Origin: Chloroflexota bacterium
GTDB lineage: Bacteria; Chloroflexota; Limnocylindria; Limnocylindrales; CSP1-4
Direction: 5' to 3'
NCBI GenBank assembly: GCA_029240655.1
Contig: JARDZW010000003.1
Span: 1 to 48,233 of the forward strand
DNA length: 48,233 nucleotides
Program-made: the position numbers and the translations under genes
The notes under the pieces: model-generated
What the model was told of the DNA's origin: nothing
The model's database searches: none
The model's input: only the letters and a program-made list of their open reading frames with translations
In this document: positions 15,681 to 48,233 of the stretch, in pieces
Numbering within the stretch: the first letter of the stretch is position 1
How the letters are laid out: each line of letters begins with the position of its first letter

Positions 15681-17519
15681 TCAGCCCGGTCGCACGACGT
15701 AGTACGCATCGATGGAGACCGTCGGACGCCCGGATGTCCCGAGGCCTCTGACGACGATCGTATGCGTACCTTGCGGCACGGCCGTGGCGAAGACGATGCG
15801 CCTGGCCTTGAACGTCGAGGCCTTCAGGTCCACCGTCTTGACGTACTTGCCGTCGATGTAGACGTTGGCCTTGCCGCGCGTCGGGCCGACTGGACCGACC
15901 CAGGCGACGCCGGAACCGCTGAAGGTGAGCCTGGACGTCGCGCCATTCGCCTTGGTCCAATGGGCTTTTCCACCGAGGTAGCTCGTGTGACTGGCAATGG
16001 ACCATGACCCGGCCCATTGGACGGTCGACGAGGCATCGGACACGGTGATGCCCTTCTTGGGCCCAACGCTCTTCCAGGCGCCGTACCGACCCGCCGTGTC
16101 CACGGCGCGGACGCGGAAGGTATACGCATGGCCGGAACTCAGGGTCGTCCGGTAAAGCCTGGCCTTGGCCGAGCTGAGCGTTCTGGACGAGAAACCTCCG
16201 TCATCGACCTTGACCTGCAGCTGGTACTTCCAGAGCGGGTCGGAGCTGCTCGCAAGGCCCCAGAGGACGACGGCCGGAACGCCGGAGGTCGGCACCCCGG
16301 ATGTCGTGGACAGTCGGACGCTGGGAGTCGTGACGACCGGCAGGCTGCCCGGCGCCGGTGTCGGGGTCGAGCCTCCGCCGGCCCCCCACAGCCAATCGGT
16401 GAATCCGATCGCTCGGCCCATGTTCGACTCGACGGTCGGGATCTTCGTGCCGTACCGCTTGTTGAGCAGCCACGGCATCTGACGGGCGGCGTTGGTCTCA
16501 TTCCAGCCTTTGCCACCAGATGCCTTCGAGCGGGTCACGACGCTGGCTGCTCGTTTCATCGCTTTGGTCGACCAGTCCCAGGCCGCTGTGTAACCCGCCC
16601 GATACAGCAGCTCCACCTGGAGACCCATGCCCTGGATGGTCTCGAGCTGGTAGCTGACGCCGTCGTCGCCTGGCGGCCAGCGAAGCGAGCCCCCACGGCT
16701 GATGTCGGTCACGAACGCTCCATCGACGTTGATGCCGCTCTTGGTACATGCCTTGTTCTCGGGCGTGAACGTGGCGGCTGACACGCAGCTCCACGAAAGA
16801 TCCGCGCTGCCGAGCTGCATGGTGAAGCCCTTGTAGGCGGCTCGGTCCCCGAGGAACCCCCGGGTCACGAGGGCCGCCCGAGCCAGGTCGGTCTTGTCGC
16901 CGAGATACCGACTCGCCGCGATCCGCGAGGCCCCGGCATAGGCGCCCCAGTTGTTCGCCGAGACCGCGTGCGTCCGGCTCAGCGTGTACCACGTGGCGTG
17001 GCCGCCGACGTTGCGCGTTCGGATCGCCGATAACCACGAGCGGAACGTGGAGTCGTTCGCACCAGAGAGATCGGCGAAATCGGCCGCCAGGACATAGGCC
17101 ATGAGCTGGCGTCCCAGGGCCAGGACGGCGTTCGAGCAACCAACTGTCTGGGTCTTGATGGCGGCCATCACGCCTGCCCGGGCCTTCGTGCCGTAGGACG
17201 AGCTTCCCGTACGCGCGAATACGAGGGCGGCCGCCAAGGTCCGCAGGTGATGATCCTCGTTCTGATCACACAGGTTGGGGGTGCCGAGGGATGCACCTGC
17301 GACGGCTTTCAGGTTGGACCAGGCGTTGCCGCTCGTGGGTCGGGCCAGCAGCTCCGAGCGCGGCATGAGGAGGTAGTTGGTCGCGGCATCCGTCGGCGTC
17401 GGGGCTGACCAGGCGGTGACGGCGAGGATGAGGGCGCCTATCAAGGCTGCTGCGACGGCCCGGGGGGCGAAGGTTGGTCGGCCAGGCGCCCACTGGACGC
17501 CGATGTGGACCTCTCGCAT
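15681..17519 (-). CDS. secreted alginate-lyase-fold protein with FN3-like and galactose-binding-like C-terminal domains
   Basis: AGGAAGGAG SD before ATG 17519; hydrophobic signal; helical domain with NNWG and RG..Y motifs; PTP linker; YTFRVRAVD (FN3-like); final beta domain with GPTRGKANVYIDG and GTHTIVV. Confidence 0.7.
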   Translation of the reverse strand: MREVHIGVQWAPGRPTFAPRAVAAALIGALILAVTAWSAPTPTDAATNYLLMPRSELLARPTSGNAWSNLKAVAGASLGTPNLCDQNEDHHLRTLAAALVFARTGSSSYGTKARAGVMAAIKTQTVGCSNAVLALGRQLMAYVLAADFADLSGANDSTFRSWLSAIRTRNVGGHATWYTLSRTHAVSANNWGAYAGASRIAASRYLGDKTDLARAALVTRGFLGDRAAYKGFTMQLGSADLSWSCVSAATFTPENKACTKSGINVDGAFVTDISRGGSLRWPPGDDGVSYQLETIQGMGLQVELLYRAGYTAAWDWSTKAMKRAASVVTRSKASGGKGWNETNAARQMPWLLNKRYGTKIPTVESNMGRAIGFTDWLWGAGGGSTPTPAPGSLPVVTTPSVRLSTTSGVPTSGVPAVVLWGLASSSDPLWKYQLQVKVDDGGFSSRTLSSAKARLYRTTLSSGHAYTFRVRAVDTAGRYGAWKSVGPKKGITVSDASSTVQWAGSWSIASHTSYLGGKAHWTKANGATSRLTFSGSGVAWVGPVGPTRGKANVYIDGKYVKTVDLKASTFKARRIVFATAVPQGTHTIVVRGLGTSGRPTVSIDAYYVVRPG

Positions 17520-17794
17520 GATGCTCCTTCCTACCTGGACGCCGAGCATTGACGTTCGGCGAACGATGGTTGACCGGCCGGGGGACTCTGCCGGGTGACG
17601 GTGGGCTTGGGCGGCCGCGGTGAGCACGGTCGGGGACCTTCCCCGGAAGCCCTCGAACAGCGAGCGTGCGGACCGGTCAGGCCGGTAAGGCGATCGCCGC
17701 TTGCGCAACTTTATCAACCCGAGGCAAGTCGCCCCATTCGGCGACCTCCCGGCAGCTGGGAGCCGGTCAAGCCTTGCGCGGGTAGGATGCCTCG

Positions 17795-18913
17795 ATGCTT
17801 CGTTCGTTCCGGTACGTCGCCCTGATCGCGACAGTGGCGATGGTTCTGTGCGCGTGCGGGTCCGACAGCCCGAGTCGGCAACCGACCGTCCCCTCGGCTC
17901 CGAGCCCCGCTCAGCCGATCGCCAGCGCGTCTGCTGGCATCCCTTCGCCCGGCCCGAGCGCGTCCACGGAGATCGCCCAACGCACGGCGCGCTGGACCAG
18001 ACTCGAGCTCGCCTCTGACCGACCGCCAGCTCGAGAGGGTCACACCTGGACGGTCGATCCCTCGGGCGCGGTCGCGTACCTGTTCGCGGGTCGCGGTGAT
18101 GACGGGTTCCTGGGCGATCTGTGGACGTTCGATATGACTGCGGACGCCTGGGCTCAGCTGGCTCCCGTCGGGCCATCCCCCGCAGCTCGCGCTGGGCATG
18201 TGGCCGCGTGGGTCGACGGCATCGGACTCGTGGCGTTCGGTGGACGCACGGCCGCCGGGATGTCGTCCGAGCTCTGGGCATATGACCCGGAGGCGAACGG
18301 ATGGCGGCTCCTGGCGCCGGGCGACGTCGGTCCACTTGCGCGAGCCGACGCCTGCGGCGTGATCGGTATCGACGGGCGGTTGTGGGTGAGTCACGGCGAG
18401 GACGGCGGCGGCGCCTATCTCGACGACGTGTGGATCTTCGACGCCGCTGACTCCACCTGGTCGGATGTGGATCCCGGCATGCCGGAACCCGCGGCACGGG
18501 CAGGCTCCGCATGCTGGTGGGCCGGTGCCGACGGGCTCATGATCTACGGCGGGCGATCATCGACCGAGGCAGCGCACGACGACGCGTGGTCGCTTGGATC
18601 GGGGTCGGCGGTGAGGTGGGAGGCCGGCCCGACCTTCCCAGTCCCGGGCCGCTCCGACGTGGCGGTCGGCGTTTCGAGTTCCGCGGCATATCTGTTCGGC
18701 GGTGTCGGGCAGGGCGACGCGTTGTTGGGTGACCTGCTCGGCCACGACCTGTCCGACGGCACGACGGAGCGATTCGCGCCAGCGTCCGAGGCACCAGACC
18801 CGCGAGCGGGTGCCTCCCTGGTCGACGATCCGGGTGGCGAGCGAATGCTTCTGTTCGGTGGTCGAGTGGCCACGGGCCCCGTAGACGACGTGTGGTCGGT
18901 CAGCCCGCCCTGA
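17795..18913 (+). CDS. kelch-repeat beta-propeller lipoprotein
   Basis: Signal with lipobox-like LCAC; Pro/Ser linker; six repeats of P.AR.GH...Y/LFGG...D.W. Confidence 0.85.
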   Translation: MLRSFRYVALIATVAMVLCACGSDSPSRQPTVPSAPSPAQPIASASAGIPSPGPSASTEIAQRTARWTRLELASDRPPAREGHTWTVDPSGAVAYLFAGRGDDGFLGDLWTFDMTADAWAQLAPVGPSPAARAGHVAAWVDGIGLVAFGGRTAAGMSSELWAYDPEANGWRLLAPGDVGPLARADACGVIGIDGRLWVSHGEDGGGAYLDDVWIFDAADSTWSDVDPGMPEPAARAGSACWWAGADGLMIYGGRSSTEAAHDDAWSLGSGSAVRWEAGPTFPVPGRSDVAVGVSSSAAYLFGGVGQGDALLGDLLGHDLSDGTTERFAPASEAPDPRAGASLVDDPGGERMLLFGGRVATGPVDDVWSVSPP

Positions 18914-20474
18914 CGCGCGCAGGAGCGTTCGCGACCCGCGATCCTCGGTCCTGGACGGGTGGCTCGCGACTCTCGCTGAGAGCGGACGATTCGGCGCCGG
19001 TCAGCGGACCCCGCACGCCGAGGTAGGCCGCGGAGCCGGCGAGGGCCAGGATGATCCACATGTAGCGCTCATAGGCGAGGTGGAGAAACATCCCCGTGGT
19101 CAGGTAGGTGAGGAGTGCCACGATGAACGCCGTCGCCATCTGGGCATACTCCGGCGCTCGATCCCGCCATCGCCGGCGAGCTCGCTCGAGGCCGATCAGC
19201 GTCGCGCCGAACACGCCGCTGAACGCCAGGAAGCCGAGCAGCCCCGTCTCCGCCGCCATCCCCGCGAACAGATTGTGCGCCTGCCGAGCCTCGTTCTCAC
19301 TCGCGATGCCGACCTCGTCCGCGTACCGGCCGTAATGCACCGGGAAGAGGCCACGGCCGACGCCGAATACGGGGTTGTCCGCGAAGACGAGCAGGGCTGC
19401 GATCGTCTCGTTCGCGCGCTTGCGGATCGAGCTGTCTTCGGCCTGACTCGCGCCGCGCGTGCCAGTCGCACCGCCGATCGCCTCCAGCGTCGTCAGCCGC
19501 TCGAGGTACGACGGTTGCAGGGTGAACAAGACGGCGACCCCCAGCGCCACAGCGATCAGCTGCGTGGGCTTGATATAGCGGAACACCGTCATCAGCGCGA
19601 TCGCGACCGCGAGACCCAGCGCCGCGCCTCGGGAATACGTGAGCACCGCGCCGAAAGCGGTGACGAGGGTGGCCACGGCCGCGATCCATCGAAGGATCGG
19701 GCGACGCTCTCCCCAGATGCGAAACAGGCCGAGCGGGAGGAGCACGACCATGATCTGCGCGTAGCGGTTCTTCTCCCCGATCGGGCCAGCCAACCGGGGT
19801 TGCCCGTCCTCGTCGAACGTCCCGGTCTCGATCGTCGCGTCGCTGACCTGCGCGAAACCGCCGTAGTCGAAATCGAAGGATCCGGTCACCTGCTGATGGA
19901 TCGAGAGTGCCCCGAGGAGGAAGCCAACCGCGAGCAGGACCCAGACGACCATCCGCAGATCCGCGAGGGACCGGATGGAGTTGGTCACCGCGACATAGAC
20001 CAGCAGGCCTTCCACGACGAATGTGACCAGCATGTCCAGGGCAAGGTCGGGGTCGGCGGCCATCCCGATGACCGTTCCCAGGATCACGACGACGAAGTAG
20101 CCAAGCATGAACGGCAGGCCTGCCGCGATGACGATCGGCTGGCGGCGGACGATGACGTGGTAGGCGAACGGCACGATCAACAGGGCCGGGAAGGCGGCAC
20201 CGGCGAAATAGGGGACGTCGTACCGTTGGACCGCGATCGCGGCTGCGTTGCTGTACAGGATCGCCACGACGATCAGCGTCGCGCGGTCCGGCCGAAGGGC
20301 GACGCCGACGACGGCGACGATCGCGAGCAGGATTCCGACGGTCTGAAGGACGCGTTCGGCACTGACGAACCCGATGGCCACCGCCGCCGCGCATACGAGG
20401 AGGCTTGCGGCGAGCGGGCCGAGGACGAACGGCGCGCCGGGCGACGTGCGCAGCCGGCTCGTGATGGCGGTCAT
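18900..20474 (-). CDS. O-antigen ligase / Wzy-type polysaccharide polymerase
   Basis: Multi-TM; RLAGPIGEKNRYAQ, TYSRGA, NPVFGVG, AHNLF..AETG. Confidence 0.85.
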   Translation of the reverse strand: MTAITSRLRTSPGAPFVLGPLAASLLVCAAAVAIGFVSAERVLQTVGILLAIVAVVGVALRPDRATLIVVAILYSNAAAIAVQRYDVPYFAGAAFPALLIVPFAYHVIVRRQPIVIAAGLPFMLGYFVVVILGTVIGMAADPDLALDMLVTFVVEGLLVYVAVTNSIRSLADLRMVVWVLLAVGFLLGALSIHQQVTGSFDFDYGGFAQVSDATIETGTFDEDGQPRLAGPIGEKNRYAQIMVVLLPLGLFRIWGERRPILRWIAAVATLVTAFGAVLTYSRGAALGLAVAIALMTVFRYIKPTQLIAVALGVAVLFTLQPSYLERLTTLEAIGGATGTRGASQAEDSSIRKRANETIAALLVFADNPVFGVGRGLFPVHYGRYADEVGIASENEARQAHNLFAGMAAETGLLGFLAFSGVFGATLIGLERARRRWRDRAPEYAQMATAFIVALLTYLTTGMFLHLAYERYMWIILALAGSAAYLGVRGPLTGAESSALSESREPPVQDRGSRVANAPARVRAG

Positions 20475-21703
20475 GCGATGGCCTCGTCTGGCGCGTCATC
20501 GCGCTCCCCGTCAACCACTCCCGTGGGCTGGAACCGATCATTCGCCGCGGGTTCGAGCGTCCGGCGTGGCTCCCAGCGATCGATCCGCTCCCCGCGTGCC
20601 AGGTTGACCATCGCCCGCACGGCGGCGACGTTGACCATGACGAAGTAGGCTGGGATCGCCAGCGGTGCCTTGCGTCCGACGGGGTGCCCGGCGAGGAGGA
20701 TCCCGGCGCCCGCGAGCCCGTAACAAATGGCCTGTCCGACCGTGGCGATGCGGTAGATGCGCCCCAGGCGCCACGCGAGCGGGCTCACGACGGCCAGCGC
20801 GGCCATGGGCACAACGGCGGTCCGTAGCATGACCTTGTGCCACAGGAGCTGGACCGCGTACCAGCCGGTGCGTCGTGGGTCGAACAGCCGACGCATCAGG
20901 ATGAGGCATCGGAAGGACCGGGTCATGATCCGGACCTTGCGCCGGAATTCCAGCGCGCCCGAAGGGGCGACCGGCTCAAAGGCCAGCGCATCCTCGGCGA
21001 AGACCAGGCGCTGGTCCCCACCGATCACCCGCATCGTGTTCAGCATGTCGTCGCTCACCCCGTCAGGGATCGTGTCGAAGTGGTGTCGTCGTATCGCGTA
21101 GATCGCGCCCGTCGCGCTCGTCACGTTTCCGGCGGCCGACTGCGACCGCTTGAGGAGCCGGTCGAAGTCCCAGTATCCGCGCTCTCCGACGGCGGTGGCG
21201 TCCGCCTCCCCTTCCGGGAGGTAGACCTGGTTGCCCGCCACGCCGCCGACGGTCGAGTCGGCGAATGGCCGGACGAGCGCTCTGATCGCATCGGGAGCGT
21301 ATCGGCTGTTCGCATCGGAGAAGACGAGGATCTCGCCATTCGCCGCCTGAACCGCGGCTTCCAGGGCTGCACCCTTGCCGACCCGGCCCGGAGCGACCAG
21401 ACGAACGTCCTGGCTGCGATAGGCCGCGACGATCTCGTCAGTACCGTCTGTCGACCCGTCAGAGACGATGACGAACTCACGTCGATCCGCGGGGTAATCG
21501 AGCGCGAGAAGATTCTCGATGCGATCGCCGATCACGTCCGCCTCGTTGTACGCCGCGATGATGACGCTTACCGACGGCGTGATGTCCGCACGGGCAAACG
21601 GGCGCGGCCGGAGGCGGGCGCGGAGCACGGTCAGCACCGGCATGCCCGCGTACGTGATCCCGAGGATGGCCGTCGCGAGCCAGAAGATCGAGGTCCTGAT
21701 CAT
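20471..21703 (-). CDS. glycosyltransferase family 2
   Basis: SVIIAAYNE, SDGSTDGT, GKGAAL, FSDAN, GAIYAIRR, SDD, EFRRKVRI; N- and C-terminal TM segments. Confidence 0.92.
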   Translation of the reverse strand: MIRTSIFWLATAILGITYAGMPVLTVLRARLRPRPFARADITPSVSVIIAAYNEADVIGDRIENLLALDYPADRREFVIVSDGSTDGTDEIVAAYRSQDVRLVAPGRVGKGAALEAAVQAANGEILVFSDANSRYAPDAIRALVRPFADSTVGGVAGNQVYLPEGEADATAVGERGYWDFDRLLKRSQSAAGNVTSATGAIYAIRRHHFDTIPDGVSDDMLNTMRVIGGDQRLVFAEDALAFEPVAPSGALEFRRKVRIMTRSFRCLILMRRLFDPRRTGWYAVQLLWHKVMLRTAVVPMAALAVVSPLAWRLGRIYRIATVGQAICYGLAGAGILLAGHPVGRKAPLAIPAYFVMVNVAAVRAMVNLARGERIDRWEPRRTLEPAANDRFQPTGVVDGERDDAPDEAIA

Positions 21704-23049
21704 GGTCGCTCGACCGAGACCGATGGTGTCGCGACATCGTTCGACCGGGGGTCGTACGAACGTCGATCGGGATCGGTCACGACGCCCGGGAGCGCGTCGA
21801 TACGGTCCAAGATCGCCCGGGCATTCACGTCGACGTCGAAGTCCGACAGGATGCGTTGACGGGCGGCGGCGCCCATGCGAACGCGAAGGTGCGGATCGTC
21901 CACCAGGCGGCGGATCGCCGCCGCGAGTGCGGTGACGTCTCCGGGGTCGACGAGCAGGCCCGAGACCCCGTCCTCCACGAGCTCTGGGATGCCGGACAGC
22001 CGGCTGGCCACCACCGGAAGCCCACAGCTCATGGCCTCCATGAGGACCACCGGGATGCCCTCGCGCTTGCCGTTCCGGGCGACGACGCTCGGGGCAACGA
22101 GAAGATCGGCTTCCCCGAGCGCAGCGACTACTTCGGACCGGGTCCGTCGGCCATCGAGTGTCACGACGCCACCGAGACCGGCGTCATCGATCTGGGCCCG
22201 GAGCCGCGCCTCATCCTCGCCTTCCCCGATGAACCGGCAGCGGAGGTCCAGCCCCGCGTCCACGAGCAGGCGACATGCGTCGATGAGAACGGACTGGCCC
22301 TTCACCTCATGGAGGGTCCCGATGCCCAGGATCGTGAACGGTCGCGGCGTGGCATCGCGCTCCGGGACGGGTCGAAGGAGCGCCGTGTCGACTCCGCAAT
22401 GGACGACGTGTACGCGCTCGCGCGCCCATTCACCGCACTCCCCCACGATCTCTTCGAGGTTGTCCCTCGAGATGGCGATGACGAACGCGGCCTCGCGGAC
22501 CTTGCGGTCCAGCATGTGGCGATCCACATGGAGGTCCGAACCATGGGCGACGAAACTGAACGGGATGCCAGTCAGGCGGTGGATGATGAAACCCGCGGCG
22601 GCAGGATGATTCGAGAAATGGCAATGGACGTGCCGCACGCCGAGCGATTCCATCTCGTGCGCCATATGGACGACCTTGGGGAAGATCGCCAAACCACCGA
22701 AGAAGTAGTTCGCACTCCCCAGCGTGCCGCGCATCAGGGCCGCCAGCGCGCCAAGGTACGCCCGCGGCCGTCGACGCAGGGCGCGGAGCTGGCTGGCGAT
22801 GATCGCTCGCGAGAGGAACGGCTCGTATCGTGCTCGCTCGACGAGATCGAGCGCCTCGGGATGGCTCACTGACTCGCGATGCCGCAGCAACGGGAATAGT
22901 TCAACGCGCTGCGCCAGCCTCTCGACGGCCAGCAGCTCGAAGAGGATGAACGTCTCCGTCAACTTCGGAAACCGCGACACGACGTAGGCGATCGGCGCCC
23001 GTCGCCGGGTCGGATCGCCCGCCGAGGCGATCGACAGCGGACCGCTCAA
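21700..23049 (-). CDS. glycosyltransferase family 4 (WcaL-like)
   Basis: SRFPKLTETFI, HVHCHF, HGSD, HCGVD, EGIPVVLMEAMSCGLPVV, GIPELV. Confidence 0.92.
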   Translation of the reverse strand: MSGPLSIASAGDPTRRRAPIAYVVSRFPKLTETFILFELLAVERLAQRVELFPLLRHRESVSHPEALDLVERARYEPFLSRAIIASQLRALRRRPRAYLGALAALMRGTLGSANYFFGGLAIFPKVVHMAHEMESLGVRHVHCHFSNHPAAAGFIIHRLTGIPFSFVAHGSDLHVDRHMLDRKVREAAFVIAISRDNLEEIVGECGEWARERVHVVHCGVDTALLRPVPERDATPRPFTILGIGTLHEVKGQSVLIDACRLLVDAGLDLRCRFIGEGEDEARLRAQIDDAGLGGVVTLDGRRTRSEVVAALGEADLLVAPSVVARNGKREGIPVVLMEAMSCGLPVVASRLSGIPELVEDGVSGLLVDPGDVTALAAAIRRLVDDPHLRVRMGAAARQRILSDFDVDVNARAILDRIDALPGVVTDPDRRSYDPRSNDVATPSVSVERP

Positions 23050-24080: not shown

Positions 24081-24087
24081 CGCGGGG

Positions 24088-25530: not shown

Positions 25531-25667
25531 GGGTCAACTCCAGCAGTCGGTCCGGGCCCGTCGCGCATCCGGCCGGCCGGGGGATAGAGGATAGGGGCGC
25601 CGTCCCGACCTGCATAGTCCGGCCGGTTCCCCGACGCACCAGAAGGAGGAGACGGACCGAACGACGA

Positions 25668-35791: not shown

Positions 35792-35886
35792 CCCCTTGCC
35801 GCGGTATCCATTCGTACGCGGTCACGTAACGGACCGCCAACCTCTGCCGACTCCCAAACGGTAGCGCGCTCATGTGGTGCATTTGG

Positions 35887-37185: not shown

Positions 37186-37254
37186 CGATAGCCGCAGAAC
37201 AGCACGCCTCCTCCTCGTCCGGCGCCGTCGCTGGCTGGTCCGGAGTCGCGACGA

Positions 37255-37260
37255 TACAAT
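37255..37260 (+). promoter_or_regulatory. putative -10 element for the 37306 gene
   Basis: TACAAT in an otherwise very GC-rich divergent intergenic region, 45 nt upstream of the ATG. No clear -35. Confidence 0.45.
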
Positions 37261-37305
37261 GCCGCGCCACGACAGGCCTGCTGAGGAGTCGAGGAAACCG
37301 ACGAG

Positions 37306-40869: not shown

Positions 40870-42033
40870 TCACGGCCCTTCGATGAACGAGGCATGGTCG
40901 AACAGGACGCTGCCGGTGTATGCGCCTGGCAGTTCGATGAGGAGCGTCGACGACGGGTCATCGATCAGGGCTGTGAATCGCATCGTCGCGACGGTCGGTG
41001 TCGGACCGATCTCGACGGTAGCGGTCCCGTGGGTCTCCTGATGCGTTCCCACCACGCGCAGCCGGATGGACCGCGCAGTCGATGCGACGGCGACGACTTG
41101 GACCGTGTATCCCTCGCCGGCCGTGATATCGATCGGGCCCTGCCTGAGGACGACCATCGATCCGGCGGGATCCGACGCAGTGATCTCCAACCGCAAGGAG
41201 CTTGCCCCCGAACCGGACAACGGTGCGTCGGTGGCCGCCGAGACCAGGACGCCCGGCGTCGCGGTGATCTCCCAGTGGTTCACGCCTTCTTCGAAGCCGC
41301 CGTCCCGGAGGCGCTCCGTGACGTCCGCGCGTGGCGAGCCCAGGCCCGGCGAGATCGACGGCCCGGCGGACCCGCCCGACGGCGCACCGGACGGACCGGG
41401 GCCGCTGGACGCTGAGGCTCCCGGTGGTGGGCTCTGGGACGGGGGAGCCGAAGCCGACGGTCCGGCCAGGATGGACAACAGCCTCTCACCGATGCCCGGT
41501 AGATCGACGAACAGGTCGATGATCTCTTCGGCTGCTTCGCGGTACGGCACGTCACTCGTGATCGACGTGTCCAGGGCGCGGTCGACGGCCGTCGCTGACT
41601 CCGCGTAGATGATCTCGAGCTGCGCGCCGACCGTCCGGAAGGCCGGGTCCATGCTCAACGCACTCGCGCGGTCGATGGCCGGTTTCGCCTGGGTGCTGAT
41701 GCGACGCAGGACTGAGGCGATCTCCGAGCCGCGCAGATTGGATCCGGCCAGGATCTCCTGCAGCTTCCGCCGTTCCTCGATCAACCGGTCGTTGATCTCC
41801 AGGATCGCAAGAACGTCAGCACGGCGCGGATCCGGAGTCGGCTCGGCCACGTCCGGAGAGATGCTCGGTCCGACGCGCGGCGTCCCGTCCGGCACGACCC
41901 CGGGATTGCCCGCGCCGGTGGGCAGGCCGAAGACAGCCACAGAGCCGTACAGCAACATCGCGATCAGGACCGCGACGAGTTCGGGCCCGGGCACGCGGGC
42001 GCCGATCCCCGTTCCAGCAGGTCGGCTCGTCAT
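40870..42033 (-). CDS. membrane-anchored protein with helical domain and C-terminal CBM4/9-like domain
   Basis: TM segment, helical acidic domain, Pro/Ser/Gly linker, LRDGGFEEG...W...L.Q.....AG.GYTV...VLFD pattern; ATGA overlap with the upstream gene. Confidence 0.72.
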   Translation of the reverse strand: MTSRPAGTGIGARVPGPELVAVLIAMLLYGSVAVFGLPTGAGNPGVVPDGTPRVGPSISPDVAEPTPDPRRADVLAILEINDRLIEERRKLQEILAGSNLRGSEIASVLRRISTQAKPAIDRASALSMDPAFRTVGAQLEIIYAESATAVDRALDTSITSDVPYREAAEEIIDLFVDLPGIGERLLSILAGPSASAPPSQSPPPGASASSGPGPSGAPSGGSAGPSISPGLGSPRADVTERLRDGGFEEGVNHWEITATPGVLVSAATDAPLSGSGASSLRLEITASDPAGSMVVLRQGPIDITAGEGYTVQVVAVASTARSIRLRVVGTHQETHGTATVEIGPTPTVATMRFTALIDDPSSTLLIELPGAYTGSVLFDHASFIEGP

Positions 42034-42800
42034 CGAGCGACACGCTCCGTGTCTGGGCCGCCCACCGCCAGGGCGTCCTCGAGCTGACGGCCGGAGGCGC
42101 CGGCGAGACTTCCGATCGCGAAGGACAGACCGCCTTCCGAGTCGCTTACCACCAGGCGATCCTGGATCACCGTCGCGGTCACGCGTTCGAGCGAGCACTC
42201 GACGGCGACGACCGAAGGATCGCTATCCAAGGGGCCCATCAGTCGAAGGATCGCGCCGTGGCGAACGATGGCGTAGCGCGATCCCAGGACCAGCCTCGCC
42301 GTCCCGCCGAAGTACACCCCGGTGGCCAGGATCTCCGGAGGTTCGATCGGCGCCGAGGAATCGGGTGCCGTGGCAGGGAACCGCGACACGGGCGGGGTGG
42401 TAGCCAGCCGATCGGCCAGAGTGACCGGCGGGTCAGGCCGCACCAGCCGCGGCCGGGGCGGCGCGCGATCTACCGATCGCGGCTCCAGGGGGGTCATCAG
42501 TTCCGCCGAGGGCGGTTCAATGGCCTCCGCCGGTGTGGCGTCGGTGGATCCCCGTCGTCCGAACTCCAGGCCGCACGTCCCGCACCGCGACGGCCACCCT
42601 CGGACCGCCGTGTCGCAGGCGAGGCACCGTCCAGGGGGTGCCAGCGCCAGAAGCAGCAAAGCGATCGGGCCCAGCAGGCTCCCAAGGACGAGCCACGTCA
42701 AGGGCTGGCGACTGCGGCGCGTCGCATACCAGCCCGCCAACGGGCCGAAGACGGCGGCCGAGACGATCAGGAGACTGCTGATTCCAAGGAGGTCGTTCAA
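42030..42800 (-). CDS. membrane protein with zinc ribbon (CxxC..CxxC)
   Basis: Two TM segments (FGPLAGWYA..R.R..LTWLVLG.LLGPIALL), CLAC...CGTC, Pro-rich linker, small beta domain. Start uncertain (TTG 42800 chosen). Confidence 0.65.
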   Translation of the reverse strand: MNDLLGISSLLIVSAAVFGPLAGWYATRRSRQPLTWLVLGSLLGPIALLLLALAPPGRCLACDTAVRGWPSRCGTCGLEFGRRGSTDATPAEAIEPPSAELMTPLEPRSVDRAPPRPRLVRPDPPVTLADRLATTPPVSRFPATAPDSSAPIEPPEILATGVYFGGTARLVLGSRYAIVRHGAILRLMGPLDSDPSVVAVECSLERVTATVIQDRLVVSDSEGGLSFAIGSLAGASGRQLEDALAVGGPDTERVAR

Positions 42801-42984
42801 TCGTGTACCGGGGTTACGGGGCTTCGGGAATCGGTGGACGAGTGTACCGCGAGACCGACGTAAGCCCGGCGCGGGGTAGGCCGGTACTTTCATACGGTGC
42901 GCATGGGCACCGGAAAACACTTGTCGGGGCATCCGCGCGCCCGATCCGTGCCTGACGGGCGGGCCTTACAGACGCATAACTGGC

Positions 42985-43013: not shown

Positions 43014-43138
43014 TTAGTCCTGATCCTCGGCCACGGGGACCGGTACGAATCTCCGGTAAGCGATCTCCAGAATCGCCCCGATTCTCCGATTCGGCCAGGC
43101 CTTGGCGATGCGATCAAGCAGATGATTGGGGGAGCCGC

Positions 43139-44542
43139 GTGATTCGCCGATATGTGACGGTGCTTCGCCTTGCCTTGATGGCGGCGGACGCTGCATCGTC
43201 GCTGGTCTTATTTGCCGCGATCTCGACGATCGTTCTTGGCCCTGATTGGCGCGCGGGCTGGGAGCAGAGCACGCAGACCGACGGCATCATCCCGGCCCTC
43301 GCGTATGCGTTGGCCTGGATCAGCGCATCTTGGCTCGTCGGGCTGTATCGCCCTCGTGCGCTCTGGACCATGCTCGGCGACCTGCGCGAGATCGTTCGGC
43401 TGGGAGCCACGGTCGCGTCCGCGACGATCATCGTCATCTTTGCCTTGAACCTCGACGAGGTCAGCCGGCCGCTGATGGTGTCGCTGTTCGTAGCGCAGAT
43501 GGCTGTCACGTTCGTCTCGCGCGTGCTGATCCGGAAGACCTTCGGCTGGCTCCGCATCCGCGGCTACAACACCCGACAGCTGCTCATCCTCGGGACCGGT
43601 GACGCCGCCCAGAACTTCGCCAAGCTCGTCGAGCGCCACCCGGATCTGGGACTCGACATCATCGGCTTCCTGCGGCCGCATGAGCGCGGACCCGTCAGCG
43701 TGGATGGCCCGATCCTTGGGAACCTCGATGATCTGGAGCGGTTGTTCCGCGAAGAGGTCATCGATGAGGTCGCGATCTGCCTCCCGGTCAACGATTGGGA
43801 GTTCATCGATCCAGTGACGGTGCTCTGCCGTGAGGAGGGCAAACCGGTACGGATCCCGTTGGCCGACATCGGGCTGGCCTGGTTCTCCGGCCGGGTGGAA
43901 GACCTCGACGGGATCCCGGTGCTGTCACATATCCACGTCCCAGACCAGGCCCTTGCCATGTTCGCCAAGCGGCTGGTCGACATCGCGCTCTCCACGCTGG
44001 GCCTCATCGTTCTCAGCCCGCTGTTCCTCACCGTCGCAGCCGCGATGATCCTCACGGAGGGCCGGCCGGTCTTCTTCCGACAGGTTCGAGTGGGCCTCCA
44101 CGGACGGAAGTTCACCATGGTCAAGTTCCGCACGATGGTTGCCGACGCGGAGGAGCGCTACGCCGAGGTCGCGGCGATGTCGGACACGCAGGGTGCCGCG
44201 TTCAAGATGACCAACGACCCGCGGATCACGCGCATCGGCGCCTTCCTGCGCAAGACGAGTATCGATGAGCTGCCACAGCTCTGGAACGTCCTGCGCGGCG
44301 AGATGAGCATCGTCGGACCCCGCCCGGCGCCGCCCCGCGAGGTCGCCGAGTACGACCTCTGGCATCGGCGTCGTCTCTCGGTGAAACCGGGGATCACCGG
44401 TCTCTGGCAGGTCGAGGCTCGCATGGACGAGAGCTTCGACCGACGTGCCAGCCTGGATCTCAGCTACATCGACGGCTGGTCGATGTGGCTTGACCTCAAG
44501 ATCATCGTCCGGACCCTCCCGGCGATGCTCCAGGGTCGCTGA
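43139..44542 (+). CDS. priming polyprenyl-phosphate glycosyl-1-phosphotransferase (WcaJ/CpsE family)
   Basis: 4 N-terminal TM segments, CoA-binding-like domain, KRLVD, FF.Q.RVG..G..F...[48 protein letters not shown]. Confidence 0.96.
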
Positions 44543-44689: not shown

Positions 44690-47185
44690 TCAGGGAGCCG
44701 GGCGGAGAGCGACCAGCTGGCCGATGTTGACGCCGCTGGTGGCGGCGAGGGCGACCCGTGTGCCGGTCGCACCGGCTGCGGGCACGAGCTCGTCGGCGCC
44801 GGCGGTCGTGACCTTGTAGGTGTTGGTCGACGGCACGGCCTGGTCGTAGCGCTCGGTCATGCCGGCCGGTGAAGTCTCCGTCGTGAGCTGCGCGATGCCG
44901 AACAGGCCGACGAGCATGCGGCCAGGCCCGGTCGTCGTGATCGATGGCGCGGTGATCGATGTCGAGGAGGCGTTGACCCCGCCGCCGTGGGCGTCGATCG
45001 GACCCGTCGGATCGACGCCGCTGTAGGCGACGATGCCGCCGGTGGCCGACTGGCTGCTCGACAGGATGAACACGTACGACGTCGGCTCCGAGGCCCCGGC
45101 GATGCGCACGAACACGGCCTGACGGATCGTCGAGCCGCTGAGGTCCTGGCGGACGAGGGTCCAGCCCGCGGGCGGCGTGATCGTCGGGCCGCCGCGGCTG
45201 GCGATGGTCGCCAGCATCGCGTCGCCGGCCGCGAGCCCGGCCGGCCGCGGGATGGTGACCGAGGTCGTGGTCGCGTTGGCGGCCGAGCTCGCGCCCCGGA
45301 AGGCGATGCCCGCCGATGGCGGCGGGGCCGCCCCGGTCGTGAACGACCAGGTCACGGGATTGAGTGCGTTGCCCGTGCCGTCGGTGATGCCCGCGGTCAG
45401 GCTGGCGGTGTAGGTCGTGTCGGCCGCGAGGTTCGCGTTCGGGTCGAGCGTGGCCGTCCGCGACGGCCCGTCGTAGGTCACGCTGGCGGCGACCGGGCCG
45501 CCGCTGCTCGCGAGCGTGAAGGTCGTGCCCGACACGCCCGTGACGGGCTCGCTGAACGTGGCCGTCACGTTCGTCCCGACCGCGACATCGGTGGCTAGAT
45601 CGGTCGGGCTGCGGCCGGACACGGTCGGCGCGGTCTCGTCGGGATCTGCCGTGGTGAAGGCCCACTCGAGCGGCGCAAGGTCGTTGCCCGCAACATCCTC
45701 GATCCCGGTGAGCAGGCGCGCCGTGTACGTCGTGCCGGCACTGAGATTCGCGCTCGGGTTCAACGTCGCCGTGCGAGCGGGACCGTCGTAGGTGATCGTG
45801 GCCGCGATCGGCCCGCCATCCGAACTCAGGGTGAATGTCGATCCGCTGACGCCCGTCACGGGCTCGCTGAAGGTGGCGGTCACGTTCGACCCGACGGCCA
45901 CGTCCGTGGCACTCGGCGACGGGCTGCGGCCGGTGACGGTCGGTGCGGTCGTGTCCGACCCGCCACCCCCGAAGATGTCGCCGTGCCAGTAGCGCCTGGT
46001 CGTGTCGTCGAACGCCATGACGATCAGACCGGAGACCGATGTCGCATTCTGCTTGGTGCTCGTCGGGTTGTTCATGTCGTCGCTGCTGGCGTCGTGGATC
46101 ACCGTGGTTCCGACACCGGTCCCGAACCCGATGGACCCACGCGGCGACGTCTTCTCGACGATCGAGCCGCCTGCCCCGCCGCGGGTCATGTAGACCCGGA
46201 AGCGGTCGTTCGCCTCGTCGACGATGAGGATCGGTCGCGTATGGTCCTGCGTCCTGATGCCGACGGGATGGTTGGTCCATGACCCGTCCGTGGCGCGGAC
46301 GAGGAAGACGATCTGCGGGTCGGTGCTGGTCTTGACCACCGCGAACACGCGACCACTTGCGTCTGTCTTGAGGTTGAGGTGATCGTCGGCCACGCCGGAA
46401 CCGGAGAAGGCGGTCTCGGCCGCCGACCAGCTCGTATCCGCCTGCCCGTCCGTGTGGATCGCGAACCGGTCGGCCGACGCGTCCTGGTCGCTCCACATGA
46501 GACCGATCTTGTTGCCACCGAAGGCGATCAGGCTCGAGATGTCATCCCCGTCGACGGTGCCGGCGGCGGTTAGGGCGAAGGGCGTTCCCCATGCCGCATC
46601 GCTCGTCGTGCTGCGGTTGACCCAGATCTGGCCGCCTTGCTCCCACGTCGCCCAGAGCTTGCCCGTACTGTCCTTGTCGATGATGAGCGTCTCGGATCTG
46701 ACCGCGTTGATCGTGGCGGGGAACCCGCTGTCGAGCGTATACGCGTCCGTCGACCCGTCGTAACTGTACCGGTACAGTCGCGACAACCCGGAGCCGTCGC
46801 CCTCGCTGAACGTATGCGAGGCGACATACAACTTCGTCCCGTCCCAGAGGATGTCGGCTCGCGTCGAGCTGCGATCGTCGAGCCTCGTGTTCGTCCGGGA
46901 CCACGTTTCGGTCGAGCGATCGAGCTTCCAGATGTAGAAGTCCGACGTCGCGACGTCCCACATGCTGGCCCACCACGACCCGTCGTTGAACCAGACCTTG
47001 GCCTGGGGCTTGGAGCCGGTCGGCGCGGCGCCGGCGCCCGTGCCGTCGGGGCCCTGGAATCCCACGTCACCCGGATCAGCGCGGGCGGACAGGGGCGCGA
47101 GCAGGACGAGGCTGGCCGCAAGCAGCACCGGGGCCAGGCGCAGGGCGCCTCGAAGCCTCGATCCGGACCCCGGACTCGCGAGCAT
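44690..47185 (-). CDS. large secreted protein: propeller-like domain, two Big_5-like Ig domains, C-terminal beta domain
   Basis: Signal ending ARA; KPQAKVWF..GSWW, ADDHLN, HTRPIL, NNPTSTKQ; two DxTAPTV...V.ATFSEPV...YT...I.D..GN repeats; C-terminal TIPRPAG..AGD...PAGWTLV domain. Confidence 0.85.
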   Translation of the reverse strand: MLASPGSGSRLRGALRLAPVLLAASLVLLAPLSARADPGDVGFQGPDGTGAGAAPTGSKPQAKVWFNDGSWWASMWDVATSDFYIWKLDRSTETWSRTNTRLDDRSSTRADILWDGTKLYVASHTFSEGDGSGLSRLYRYSYDGSTDAYTLDSGFPATINAVRSETLIIDKDSTGKLWATWEQGGQIWVNRSTTSDAAWGTPFALTAAGTVDGDDISSLIAFGGNKIGLMWSDQDASADRFAIHTDGQADTSWSAAETAFSGSGVADDHLNLKTDASGRVFAVVKTSTDPQIVFLVRATDGSWTNHPVGIRTQDHTRPILIVDEANDRFRVYMTRGGAGGSIVEKTSPRGSIGFGTGVGTTVIHDASSDDMNNPTSTKQNATSVSGLIVMAFDDTTRRYWHGDIFGGGGSDTTAPTVTGRSPSPSATDVAVGSNVTATFSEPVTGVSGSTFTLSSDGGPIAATITYDGPARTATLNPSANLSAGTTYTARLLTGIEDVAGNDLAPLEWAFTTADPDETAPTVSGRSPTDLATDVAVGTNVTATFSEPVTGVSGTTFTLASSGGPVAASVTYDGPSRTATLDPNANLAADTTYTASLTAGITDGTGNALNPVTWSFTTGAAPPPSAGIAFRGASSAANATTTSVTIPRPAGLAAGDAMLATIASRGGPTITPPAGWTLVRQDLSGSTIRQAVFVRIAGASEPTSYVFILSSSQSATGGIVAYSGVDPTGPIDAHGGGVNASSTSITAPSITTTGPGRMLVGLFGIAQLTTETSPAGMTERYDQAVPSTNTYKVTTAGADELVPAAGATGTRVALAATSGVNIGQLVALRPAP
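45335..45955 (-). repeat. tandem intragenic duplication of two ~102-aa Ig-like (Big_5) domains
   Basis: Copies at 45955-45650 and 45640-45335 share long identical peptides (ATDVAVG.NVTATFSEPVTGVSG.TFTL, YDGP.RTATL). Confidence 0.88.
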
Positions 47186-47367
47186 GAAGCCTATGACGTC
47201 CGCCGGCCGATCCGAACCGCCTCCAGGGACATTGGCCGCACGGTCCGCGACTCGCCCTGACTCCGCGAGCGGACGGGCGGCTTGAGTCGCGGACGCGCGG
47301 TGATCGCGCGATAGGCTTCAGATGTGGGCACGGTCTCCCCAGTCCCCCTGCTCGTCGAAGACGAGCA
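47185..47367 (-). promoter_or_regulatory. structured 5' leader with nested inverted repeats covering the start codon
   Basis: TGAAGCCTAT (47185-47194)/ATAGGCTTCA (47311-47320); GTCCGCGACTC (47243-47253)/GAGTCGCGGAC (47284-47294); hairpin at 47349-47367. Confidence 0.5.
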
Positions 47368-47542
47368 TGTCTCATCTCTGTGGTCTAGCCCGATGACTCC
47401 GGTGGACCTGGCGGCGTCCAGCGGGTAGCCCAAAGTACCATCCAGAAGCCTTGCTCCGCCAGCGGGTGCCGTCCCGATGGTGCGTCGGCGCACCACTGAA
47501 CGAAATCCGAGCGGCCCCGCACGGCGCGAAGGCAGAGCGGCG

Positions 47543-48232
47543 CTAGGGCGCGAAGACGACCAGCTGGGCGGCACTTACGGAGCTGCCCGAGGCTCGCGCG
47601 GCGAGCGGGCCGATCCGTCCCACGTTGGCCGAGCCAGCCGAGACCTCGAGGGAGATCTTGTAGGTGCCCGCCGTCGAAGCGGCCTCGCCGAGCTCCGTCA
47701 TCCCTGCGGGCGCCGAGATCGACGTCGATCGAGCCGCGGCGAAGAACCCAAGGACGAGGCTCCGGTTCGCGTTGACGTTCGTGGCCGGACTGATGATGTC
47801 CGATGCCTTGGCGTTGACGCGACCAGCGGCCTCCGACAGGCTGCTGCCCGATCCACGGAGTGCAACGATCGCGCCAGACGCTGCCTGGGATGCGCTGAAC
47901 TTCCACGTGTACGAGGCCGGCTCGCTCGATCCGGCGACTCGGGTGTAGGTCGCGAGTGTGGTGATCGTCCCGTTCACCTCGATGCCGACGAGCTTCCAAC
48001 CGCCCGGAGCCTCGATGGTTGGGGATCCGCGAACACCGACCGCGGCGATCAGCTGGTCACCTGGCCTCGCTCCTGCGGGCCGCTCGATCACGACCGAGGT
48101 GGCCGTGCCGTTGGCGCCGACCGAGGTGGACCGGATGTCGACCTTGGCACTATCGACCTTTTGCAGCGTGTCGGTGACCGGGGGCGCCTGCGTGGGCGCC
48201 TCCGTCGGCGCGGGGCTGGCGGTCGGGGCCGG
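47543..48232 (-). CDS. C-terminal part of a secreted protein (5' end outside the window)
   Basis: Open to the window end; Pro/Thr/Ala linker (PAPTASPAPTEAPTQAPP) then a domain paralogous to the C-terminus of 44690-47185 (SVVIERPAG..PGD, APGGWKLV, SEPASY, APAGMTE, TYK). Confidence 0.82.
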   Translation of the reverse strand, partial: PAPTASPAPTEAPTQAPPVTDTLQKVDSAKVDIRSTSVGANGTATSVVIERPAGARPGDQLIAAVGVRGSPTIEAPGGWKLVGIEVNGTITTLATYTRVAGSSEPASYTWKFSASQAASGAIVALRGSGSSLSEAAGRVNAKASDIISPATNVNANRSLVLGFFAAARSTSISAPAGMTELGEAASTAGTYKISLEVSAGSANVGRIGPLAARASGSSVSAAQLVVFAP

Positions 48233-48233
48233 G

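Follow-up and report, generated by a model that had tools for sequence, protein, structure and literature searches.

A Wzx/Wzy-type surface-glycan locus of a Limnocylindria bacterium with a recurrent set of kinase-like, ATP-grasp and deacetylase genes

The 48,233-nucleotide stretch of contig JARDZW010000003.1 analysed here (the window) comes from a Chloroflexota bacterium of the class Limnocylindria and carries, from position 15681 to 48233, a glycan locus of the Wzx/Wzy type, as recognised by Pfam and NCBIfam. The tailoring genes and most of the assembly genes of the locus form one 15-gene operon on the minus strand, running from about 37185 to 18900, which encodes five kinase-like domains, a nucleotidyltransferase (NTase) assigned to PF14907, an ATP-grasp ligase and a CE4 deacetylase together with glycan-assembly proteins. 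Judged from its gene content, operon structure, catalytic motifs, division into cytoplasmic and exported proteins and co-occurrence in other genomes, all of which are observed directly, the locus would constitute one functional Wzx/Wzy surface-glycan system whose cytoplasmic tailoring set modifies the lipid-linked repeat unit before it is flipped, a reading to which we give somewhat better than an even chance of being right. Such a system had been suggested from the letters of this DNA and a list of its open reading frames (the original prediction), and the analysis below bears on several of its claims.

The window has a G+C content of 69%, so that long spurious open reading frames (ORFs) are common, and genes were chosen by third-position G+C together with family matches; Pfam was run over 42 candidate ORFs and NCBIfam over 24 proteins. 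The first gene of the operon encodes a fusion of the NTase with a thymidylate-kinase-like (TMK-like) domain and is followed by the flippase gene. From the flippase gene to the chain-length gene, the order is APH-like kinase 1 (APH1), HprK-like kinase, APH-like kinase 2 (APH2), a stp1-like GT4 glycosyltransferase (stp1-GT4), TMK-like kinase, ATP-grasp ligase and CE4 deacetylase. At 10 of the 13 junctions between the Wzx and Wzy genes, start and stop codons overlap by 1 to 23 nucleotides (overlaps of the ATGA or GTGA type, or of 8 to 23 nucleotides), and the non-overlapping gaps are of 7, 96 and 138 nucleotides; the Wzy and GT2 genes meet in an ATGA overlap. Because of these overlaps the genes from Wzx to Wzy are taken to form one operon, in agreement with the translationally coupled run that had been noticed between wzx and wzc. 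No promoter-like and two terminator-like sites were found in positions 18500-38400, no more than in shuffled sequences and thus uninformative, and an Rfam scan of the whole window gave no matches, so that no riboswitch was detected. The kinase-like proteins, the ATP-grasp ligase, the CE4 deacetylase, the NTase fusion and the GT4 glycosyltransferases have no transmembrane-like segment, and the tailoring proteins and GT4s are read as cytoplasmic for this reason.

Evidence that these genes belong together comes from their recurrence in other genomes. Among 8000 scored candidates, 1057 were relatives of the HprK-like protein at an E value of 1e-5 or better. With one genome taken per species, 274 stretches matched two motif patterns, 261 of them encoding an HprK-like relative, and the best 80 of these 261, all records of metagenome-assembled genomes, are the 80 loci referred to here. 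Twenty-three window proteins were compared with the 80 loci by tblastn (coverage at least 0.4, E value at most 1e-6); many loci are cut short, so that the counts are lower bounds. A full-flank subset, to which a coverage threshold of 0.5 was applied, is made up of the 43 loci in which the HprK-like gene has 8 kb or more of sequence on each side. According to their record titles, the 80 loci fall under about seven phylum-level labels. Those of the Chloroflexota are Limnocylindrales, Anaerolineae, Caldilineaceae, Ardenticatenaceae, Thermoflexus, Roseiflexaceae and Aggregatilineales, and those of the Actinomycetota are Gaiellales, Solirubrobacteraceae, Acidimicrobiales and Thermoleophilia; the others are Gemmatimonadetes, Planctomycetota, Acidobacteriota, Krumholzibacteriia, Eisenbacteria and one short contig labelled Patescibacteria. 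This last one (L041), a contig of 5.6 kb from a 'Patescibacteria group' bin, has a core cassette that is 55-70% identical to that of the window and looks like a misplaced Limnocylindria contig.

The TMK-like gene is present in all 43 full-flank loci, the ATP-grasp gene in 41 and the CE4 gene in 40, and they are accompanied by GT2 in 29, the EpsE-like GT4 in 27, the Wzc-like gene in 26, Wzy in 23, the stp1-type GT4 in 18 and the NTase domain in 17. Over all 80 loci, matches were obtained for the TMK-like kinase in 67, ATP-grasp in 63, CE4 in 53, APH1 in 44, APH2 in 43, the EpsE-like GT4 in 37, GT2 in 36 (at about 41-58% identity), Wzx in 34, Wzc-like in 33, Wzy and stp1-GT4 in 30 each, and the priming transferase in 23. 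The kinase and ATP-grasp genes therefore do occur with polysaccharide genes elsewhere; their failure to do so had been named in the original prediction as the result that would speak against it. The order Wzx-APH-HprK-APH-GT4-TMK-ATPgrasp-CE4 is identical in three loci titled Chloroflexi, Acidimicrobiales and Aggregatilineales (L043, L072 and L097, respectively), and two others (L049 and L085) have the same order with inserted genes. On a complete contig of 5.2 Mb (G864), the order is Wzc-Wzx...Wzy-GT2-GT4-CE4-ATPgrasp-TMK-GT4(stp1)-APH, with the HprK-like gene divergent; the HprK-like protein of this contig is identical to P0174, the NCBI protein FSW04_17215 of Baekduia soli. The same order, together with Wzx, Wzy and glycosyltransferase genes, is thus found across several phyla, in support of the proposal that the genes form one system. 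Chance juxtaposition was considered as well and is ruled out by the synteny with 80 other loci.

Within this recurrent set, two layers can be distinguished. The stp1-type GT4 is found in 18 of the 22 full-flank loci with one or more APH-like genes and is absent from all 21 without, and the NTase domain is found in 16 of the 22 APH-bearing loci and in 1 of the 21 APH-less ones. Two genus-mates of the window's bacterium (G021 and G024) have only HprK-TMK-ATPgrasp-CE4, beside Wzc-GalE-GT4-GT2-Wzy. Since the stp1-GT4 and the NTase co-vary with the APH genes and the genus-mates keep the core alone, the comparison suggests that the cassette consists of an invariant four-gene core and an accessory set (one or two APH kinases, stp1-GT4 and the NTase-TMK fusion) that would be gained and lost as a unit. 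This division describes the cassette better than the seven-gene run that had been proposed as its unit.

The five kinase-like domains that had been counted in the operon are real: two are of the APH type, one is TMK-like, one is the TMK-like half of the NTase fusion and one, assigned weakly, is HprK-like. The HprK-like protein, the product of the first core gene (31484-32593, minus strand), is a P-loop kinase of the HprK/ScmC/FomB kind, and its assignment is the weakest of the five. Its best NCBIfam match is to the FomB family (E 1.9e-6, 27.2 bits), with HprK_rel_A, HprK_rel_B and ScmC following at E values of 4e-3 to 6e-3; these scores, 15.7-27.2 bits, are far under the cut-offs, and there is no Pfam match at an E value of 0.01 or better. 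A profile of the family matches HprK in the PDB at an E value of about 1.6e-3, and some relatives carry PF07475 or PF27840. The assignment is backed by the P-loop, GWSKGGK[ST]E, which occurs in the form GWSKGGKTE in 68 of the 80 loci, and by Atlas neighbours that are named Hpr(Ser) kinase or carry PF27840 ScmC.

The TMK-like kinase, encoded by the second core gene (27939-28622, minus strand), scores 38.1 bits against a Thymidylate_kin cut-off of 27, and its GPDGAGKTT and DRHF motifs are kept in an alignment of 25 sequences. Both TMK-like proteins, that of the core and that of the NTase fusion, keep a GPDGAGK[ST] P-loop and a DRH/DRY-type motif, and they have in common a conserved insertion of about 60 residues that is absent from thymidylate (dTMP) kinases. 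Against the dTMP kinase equivalog TIGR00041 they score 40.7 and 19.6 bits, respectively, under the cut-off of 83.25, so that their likeness to dTMP kinase is one of fold and motifs only. The third core gene (26710-27942, minus strand) encodes an ATP-grasp ligase (ATPgrasp_Ter, E 5.2e-10) in which Lys, Glu and Asn residues are invariant across the family alignment. Its profile matches carbamoyl-phosphate synthetase in the PDB at an E value of 1.2e-11 and the 331-residue chain 2pn1 over its full length; as to specificity, this comparison gave only generic matches of the carbamoyl-phosphate synthetase, RimK and cyanophycin types. The fourth core gene (25668-26717, minus strand) encodes a CE4 (NodB-type) polysaccharide deacetylase (Polysacc_deac_1, E 4.6e-20) with the motifs TFDD and HTRTH (HxxxH).

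Of the accessory proteins, APH1 (32590-34236, minus strand; PF01636, 39.5 bits against a cut-off of 23.2) has an N-terminal Rossmann (methyltransferase-like) domain ahead of its kinase domain, and APH2 (29863-31506, minus strand; PF01636, 36.2 bits against the same cut-off) also has an extra N-terminal domain. In an alignment of 39 sequences, both families keep K268, E282, HGDxxxxN and DWE with little or no variation, and model score, catalytic motifs and fold all place them in the APH/choline-kinase family PF01636. An AlphaFold2 (AF2) model of APH1 built from 39 aligned sequences (pLDDT 90.4, pTM 0.91) has an N-terminal alpha/beta domain of the Rossmann type followed by the C-terminal kinase domain. 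Its top Foldseek matches are mycobacterial maltokinase (4u94), APH(3')-IIa and glucosamine kinase (6hwl), and VIA gives Z values of 15-16 over about 270 residues with fructosamine-3-kinase, macrolide and aminoglycoside phosphotransferases, homoserine kinase and the choline kinase LicA. The modelled kinase domain thus has a small-molecule-kinase fold; structure prediction with Foldseek had been among the checks proposed. The N-terminal part has weak matches to methyltransferase profiles (E 0.007-0.5) and a degenerate glycine motif (GxP).

The stp1-type GT4 (28619-29863, minus strand) scores 227 bits with TIGR03087, the stp1 model of the PEP-CTERM/XrtA exopolysaccharide system, which is under the cut-off of 316.65. 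The fusion protein (35887-37185, minus strand) lies just upstream of wzx, where it had been placed by the original prediction, and was assigned through its family: PF14907 is found in 10 of 16 members (N-terminal half, best E 1.6e-7) and Thymidylate_kin in 14 of 16 (C-terminal half), and the window protein itself scores 16 bits against a PF14907 cut-off of 31.2. The family profile matches thymidylate kinases of the PDB at an E value of 8e-10, and D49, H80, D97, GPDGxGK and DR are invariant. PF14907 is a nucleotidyltransferase family of the Pol-beta type, and enzymes that make nucleoside diphosphate sugars (NDP-sugars) are of the PF00483 type; the NTase half is probably a Pol-beta-type domain and not a sugar-1-phosphate nucleotidyltransferase. 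The closest sampled relative with the full cassette, G014, has a second, diverged and partial copy of the module on another contig (L015; G014:C356, 9959-16398), with identities of 50% for the stp1-GT4, 32% for the ATP-grasp-like protein, 50% for the TMK-like protein and 45% for the HprK-like protein.

The assembly proteins comprise a priming transferase, a GT2, two GT4s, GalE, Wzx, a Wzy-like and a Wzc-like protein, and Pfam and NCBIfam reproduced this set as it had been listed. The priming polyprenyl-phosphate glycosyl-1-phosphate transferase (43139-44542, plus strand; Bac_transf, E 1e-71) scores 407.9 bits against a TIGR03025 cut-off of 295.55. In addition to the stp1-type GT4, there are a GT2 glycosyltransferase (20471-21703, minus strand; Glycos_transf_2, E 1.8e-25) and an EpsE-like GT4 (21700-23049, minus strand; Glycos_transf_1, E 2.9e-38; NF041876, 225.8 bits, under the cut-off of 400), and they are joined by the UDP-glucose 4-epimerase GalE (23046-24080, minus strand; TIGR01179, 381.6 bits against 262.3). 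Wzx is a flippase of the MOP family (34229-35791, minus strand; Polysacc_synt, 52.3 bits against 28.2), and the Wzy-type polymerase is a membrane protein of the O-antigen-ligase family (18900-20474, minus strand; Wzy_C, 70.2 bits against 31.7) in which polymerase and ligase are not separable by sequence; both have many transmembrane-like segments. The priming, flippase and polymerase components of a Wzx/Wzy pathway are thus all present.

The Wzc-like chain-length protein (24088-25530, minus strand) consists of a Wzz domain (27.9 bits against a cut-off of 25.5) and a degenerate P-loop domain, and it scores 77.6 bits with TIGR01007, under the cut-off of 108. The Walker A lysine and the C-terminal tyrosine cluster of an active bacterial tyrosine kinase (BY-kinase) are absent, and the sequence looks like that of a chain-length protein whose BY-kinase domain is dead. 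The same GxGET P-loop is found in the Wzc-like proteins of two other loci (L019 and L023). A Wza-type exporter had been reported as missing from the window, and Poly_export (PF02563) was indeed not found anywhere in the genome (G000, 71.5% complete). This is not a gap. In loci from double-membrane hosts, a Gemmatimonadota (L060) and a Planctomycetota (L094), a Poly_export/SLBB gene adjoins the chain-length gene, so that the absence of Wza reflects the single-membrane envelope of the host and is expected in such a Chloroflexota.

The assembly machinery can be compared with the Wzx/Wzy loci for exopolysaccharide, capsule and O-antigen, for example that of Myxococcus Eps, which likewise combine a priming transferase, GT2, GT4, MOP flippase, Wzy_C and Wzz/P-loop protein in one locus; the Eps models themselves stay under cut-off here (225.8 bits against 400 for EpsE, 290.7 against 800 for EpsZ). 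In contrast to these loci, the window adds five kinase-like domains, an NTase, an ATP-grasp ligase and a cytoplasmic CE4, has no Wza, and has a degenerate kinase domain in its Wzc-like protein. The holdfast of Caulobacter is likewise made by an adhesin pathway of the Wzx/Wzy type in which a CE4-family deacetylase (HfsH) reportedly modifies the polysaccharide and alters its properties. The holdfast models are, however, far under cut-off for the window proteins (149.8 bits against 750 for HfsE, 20.7 against 700 for HfsF), and we know of no HprK-like, TMK-like, APH-like or ATP-grasp partners in that system.

The tailoring enzymes can be compared with other systems as well. The GAK, HprK_rel_A, HprK_rel_B and ScmC cassettes of NCBIfam are conserved, contain P-loop proteins of the HprK superfamily and in one case an ATP-grasp protein, but their models score only 15.7-16.4 bits here against cut-offs of 125-200, and their partners and the glycan context differ. 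A GAK system is not recognised in the window by these models, TIGR04355 scoring 15.7 bits against 200 and grasp_GAK not being among the 20 NCBIfam families listed for the ATP-grasp protein. With the pair FomA/FomB and thymidylate kinase, the likeness is in the P-loop, the DRH motif and the lid region that the window's P-loop kinases share with dTMP kinase; FomB, best match of the HprK-like protein as it is, still falls short at 27.2 bits against a cut-off of 400. Among glycan kinases, the lipopolysaccharide core kinases WaaP and WaaY and the chain terminator WbdD are enzymes of the protein-kinase fold that phosphorylate sugars of lipid-linked glycans before export; WbdD has a methyltransferase domain followed by a kinase domain, the domain order of APH1 and APH2, and works in an ABC-transporter pathway. 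Capsule tailoring in Campylobacter (the O-methyl phosphoramidate (MeOPN) route and an ATP-grasp amidoligase) combines a kinase, an NTase, a P-loop kinase and an ATP-grasp amide ligase. All of these systems belong to double-membrane Proteobacteria, and none of their proteins was among the Foldseek and VIA matches listed for APH1, the N-terminal domain of which was not searched alone.

On the peptide side, the closest parallel is a pair of lasso-peptide enzymes, the NTase of which we take to belong to PF14907. For paeninodin and pseudomycoidin, too, a distant homologue of HPr kinase is encoded together with an uncharacterised nucleotidyltransferase; the kinase homologue phosphorylates a single C-terminal serine hydroxyl, in some cases several times, and its partner attaches a hexose to the resulting phosphate (PMC8498205). 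These enzymes act on a peptide and are accompanied by a lasso cyclase, a protease and an RRE, none of which is among the 42 window ORFs scanned. Full-text literature searching found no description of the tailoring module and no paper joining Limnocylindria with exopolysaccharide. By profile comparison, then, the assembly machinery is an ordinary Wzx/Wzy set and the tailoring set matches no curated NCBIfam family above cut-off, in agreement with the undescribed pathway that had been proposed; the phosphorylated or amino-acylated polymer of that proposal, and its succession of kinase, NTase and NMP-kinase steps, are putative.

According to the reading favoured here, the priming transferase and the three glycosyltransferases would build a repeat unit on polyprenyl diphosphate at the cytoplasmic face of the membrane, the soluble tailoring set would modify this polyprenyl-diphosphate-linked unit in the cytoplasm, and Wzx would then flip it for polymerisation by Wzy, with the Wzc-like protein setting the chain length. 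Tailoring before flipping is the simplest model because the tailoring proteins appear to be cytoplasmic and are co-translated with the flippase and the transferases. Every substrate and product in this scheme is one that we infer. The CE4 enzyme would take off an N-acetyl group and the ATP-grasp ligase would join a carboxylate, such as that of an amino acid, to the freed amine, or else amidate a uronate; a CE4 followed by an ATP-dependent ligase has the logic of deacetylation and subsequent acylation. APH-type enzymes phosphorylate hydroxyls, and the APH-like kinases here would phosphorylate hydroxyls of sugars. dTMP kinase and enzymes of the FomB type phosphorylate phosphate or phosphonate monoesters, HPr-kinase homologues can phosphorylate a single hydroxyl repeatedly, as in the lasso-peptide clusters, and the P-loop kinases would accordingly extend a phosphate or ready it for a substituent that the NTase attaches. 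The accessory set would go with the residue that the stp1-GT4 adds. This reading is supported by the conservation of catalytic motifs across the APH, TMK-like, ATP-grasp and CE4 families, and indirectly by one locus of the Ardenticatenaceae (L049), in which genes for an APS kinase, a type I phosphodiesterase, a beta-propeller phytase and a GMC oxidoreductase are inserted in the cassette (6085-13945) and a sulfatase gene follows it (19257-20708), insertions that are consistent with phospho- or sulfo-ester chemistry.

Several observations weigh against it. No NCBIfam family reaches its cut-off for any tailoring gene, and the characterised relatives of the HprK-like and PF14907 proteins that are considered here act on peptides and not on glycans (PMC8498205). 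The APH1 model is closest to kinases of free sugars, which would fit the activation of a free metabolite at least as well. In the window's HprK-like protein, residues 146-154 are GWSKGGRSE, with Arg in place of the Walker A Lys, a change found among the 80 loci only in L019 (88% identical), and this copy may be inactive, impaired or altered; the Walker A of the Wzc-like protein is GDGAGET, without the lysine of GK[ST], and its C-terminal tail has no tyrosine. In G014 the stp1-GT4 is reduced to a fragment of about 118 residues between APH2 and the TMK-like gene (L017; G014:C284, about 3869-4147), possibly a pseudogene or the result of a deletion. The co-variation counts overstate independence, since roughly 13 of the 21 loci without APH genes (L026-L039) are closely related. 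The cassette is also rare and patchy. It was found in 7 of 401 genomes sampled across the phylum, and around a Solirubrobacter-type genome in 1 of 201 at the order level and 8 of 401 at the family level; among close relatives it occurs in 6 of 41 genomes, counting that of the window, with 5 of 24 other members of the genus and none of 16 in the sister family.

The main alternative, possible though unlikely, is that the kinases never touch the lipid-linked glycan. The APH kinases and the NTase-TMK fusion, perhaps together with the remaining P-loop kinases, would instead turn a free sugar, polyol or amino alcohol, by way of a phosphate ester, into a nucleotide-activated donor, which the stp1-GT4 or another transferase would add to the repeat unit. 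The structural neighbours of the APH1 model, which include maltokinase 4u94, glucosamine kinase 6hwl, fructosamine-3-kinase and LicA, suit this alternative as well as they suit the favoured reading, as does the co-variation of the APH, stp1-GT4 and NTase genes (18 of 22 against 0 of 21; 16 of 22 against 1 of 21). The PF14907 domain, being of the Pol-beta type and not a PF00483-type maker of NDP-sugars, speaks against it, and five kinase-like domains exceed the need of a single activation route. Moreover, the 21 loci that have no APH, stp1-GT4 or, with one exception, NTase genes still keep the core and with it the HprK-like and TMK-like kinases, which argues that these two kinases have some other role than donor activation. 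In an unrelated family of phosphonate gene clusters, a thymidylate kinase and a PF14907 protein together flank phosphoenolpyruvate mutase (PMC8942020), which suggests a reusable pair for small-molecule activation.

Modification of the lipid-linked unit could also go further than the favoured scheme supposes. A hydroxyl of a lipid-linked sugar might be phosphorylated, the HprK-like and TMK-like kinases might extend this phosphate to a di- or oligophosphate that the PF14907 NTase caps with a nucleotide-derived or glycosyl group, and CE4 and ATP-grasp might exchange N-acetyl for aminoacyl. We regard this chemistry as decidedly unlikely. If true, it would be a new kind of glycan decoration and a polysaccharide counterpart of the phosphoglycosylation of lasso peptides, and many uncultured Chloroflexota and Actinomycetota of soil would share a highly charged surface polymer bearing pyrophosphate.

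It is improbable that some of the kinase-like proteins are non-catalytic here and serve as regulatory or scaffolding subunits of the export machinery. Two proteins fit such a role, the HprK-like copy, whose GWSKGGRSE is confined to this window and L019 as against GWSKGGKTE in 68 of the 80 loci, and the Wzc-like protein with its GDGAGET Walker A and no tyrosine tail. These substitutions are specific to lineages, however, and the catalytic motifs are conserved family-wide and intact in the window's own APH, TMK-like, ATP-grasp and CE4 proteins.

Least probable of all, and quite improbable in itself, is modification of a peptide or of an exported protein, such as a propeller or a lyase, by the HprK/ScmC-like kinase and the PF14907 NTase, with the glycan genes as mere neighbours or as suppliers of an attached glycan. 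The nearest named families, ScmC and HprK_rel_A/B, do sit in peptide-modification cassettes. The lasso-peptide relatives phosphorylate a C-terminal serine and attach a hexose to that phosphate (PMC8498205). Against this reading, 40-43 of 43 loci link the kinase to ATP-grasp, CE4 and glycan-assembly genes, and among the 42 ORFs scanned there is no gap of the size of a precursor peptide and no PqqD/RRE, lasso cyclase, protease or radical-SAM gene. A ribosomally synthesised and post-translationally modified peptide (RiPP) as the product was rejected, since peptide-maturation genes are not among these ORFs and the operon gaps, at most 138 nucleotides, leave no room for a precursor gene.

The operon is flanked by genes for exported proteins, of which, in the favoured scheme, the anchored lyase-fold and propeller proteins would trim, bind or anchor the polymer after its export. 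At least seven exported proteins had been counted. Six of them have a single N-terminal hydrophobic segment (a lyase-fn3, a Kelch, an alginate-lyase-family and a CBM-like protein and two propellers), and the seventh, a partial ORF running off the window end (47543-48232, minus strand) for which neither a Pfam or NCBIfam family nor a homologue among the 80 loci was found, cannot be judged. That the exported lyase-fold and propeller proteins belong with the cassette, as had been proposed, is borne out by the propellers Prop1 and Prop2, whose homologues recur in 33 and 30 of the 80 loci, respectively.

Prop1 (38888-40852, plus strand) is an anchored beta-propeller with no Pfam or NCBIfam family, and it is paralogous to the N-terminal domain of Prop2, with which it has the propeller domain in common. 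Prop2 (44690-47185, minus strand) is a secreted protein with a seven-bladed propeller followed by one Big_12 (E 7.7e-9) and two Big_5 (E 2.8e-44) immunoglobulin-like domains. An AF2 model of its residues 36-430 (pLDDT 84.4) is an all-beta propeller, with top Foldseek matches, at template-modelling (TM) scores of 0.5-0.6, to GH145 BT3686 (one entry with glucuronic acid) and to seven-bladed lectins of Photorhabdus; the rhamnose-glucuronate lyase 7esk, which we take to be of family PL42, and sialidases are matched in the same range.

The exported lyase-fold protein (15681-17519, minus strand, 612 residues) has weak matches to Alginate_lyase (E 0.0014) and, at its C-terminal end, to fn3 (E 2.8e-4); residues 15-42 form its single N-terminal hydrophobic segment, and homologues are found in 14 of the 80 loci. 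It had been called as a 943-residue ORF (15681-18512, minus strand), which is over-extended: this ORF overlaps by about 700 nucleotides a genuine Kelch gene on the opposite strand (E 6.5e-47), and its first 330 residues are an Arg/Pro-rich artefact of high G+C. The most likely start is the ATG at 17519, which has a GGAGG motif ahead of it. The Kelch gene (17795-18913, plus strand) encodes a beta-propeller of Kelch repeats that is probably a lipoprotein, with an N-terminal hydrophobic segment followed by an LCAC motif; a homologue occurs in 3 of the 80 loci. The membrane-anchored alginate-lyase-family protein (37306-38496, plus strand; Alginate_lyase, E 2.7e-30), which has one N-terminal hydrophobic segment and a homologue in 18 of the 80 loci, is encoded divergently from the operon. 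In the genus-mates G024 (L010) and G021 (L012), three paralogous lyase-fold copies lie beside the Wzy gene.

The propeller likenesses and the two alginate-lyase-family proteins hint at a polymer that contains uronic acid. No UDP-sugar dehydrogenase is encoded in the window, and there are three elsewhere in the genome, on other contigs. Twelve of the 80 loci do encode a homologue of this enzyme, some 8 kb downstream of the HprK-like gene, and all twelve belong to the Limnocylindria group without APH genes (L026-L039). This hints that uronic acid is part of some versions of the system.

Two further proteins of the flanks are more restricted. The first is an anchored protein (40870-42033, minus strand) with an N-terminal hydrophobic segment and a CBM_4_9-like domain (E 3.4e-5; 24.7 bits, just under the cut-off of 25.9), which has a homologue in only 2 of the 80 loci. 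Adjoining its gene is that of a protein with two transmembrane-like segments (residues 45-69 and 76-106) and a CxxC...CxxC motif (42030-42932, minus strand), which matches no family and has homologues in 13 of the 80 loci, all of Limnocylindria type.

The rest of the window (1-15604), upstream of the glycan locus, holds housekeeping and metabolic genes without relation to it. They include leuA/leuB-type genes, with three occurrences of the LeuA_dimer domain (2-610, 1740-3425 and 3352-3987), and genes for prephenate dehydratase, MscL, aldehyde dehydrogenase, LysE, acyl-CoA dehydrogenase, an ADP-forming acyl-CoA synthetase, enoyl-CoA hydratase, a HerA-like ATPase (5352-7028) and a PPK2 polyphosphate kinase (8169-9254). 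The genome assembly is of 2.7 Mb in 231 contigs, and the nearest named homologues carry the labels Candidatus Limnocylindrales or Chloroflexota.

The charge of a bacterial surface polymer, its adhesion and its recognition by phages and immune systems depend on tailoring groups, among them phosphate, amino acids and free amines. The tailoring set described here has no studied member, and it is found in the same gene order under about seven phylum labels, nearly all of them of uncultured bacteria from soil and water. It gives a genomic context to four families without a known substrate, namely the HprK/ScmC-like kinase, the TMK-like kinase with its insertion, the Rossmann-APH fusion and the PF14907-TMK fusion, and it predicts that at least some proteins of the HPr-kinase superfamily and some thymidylate-kinase-like proteins work on glycans. 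What the window contributes is the accessory layer of two Rossmann-APH kinases, stp1-GT4 and NTase-TMK, its co-variation, the dependence of Wza on the envelope and a complete carrier genome. The HprK-like protein of that carrier is identical to one from Baekduia soli, which is presumably in culture; if so, genetics and polymer chemistry would be feasible in a bacterium that carries the cassette.

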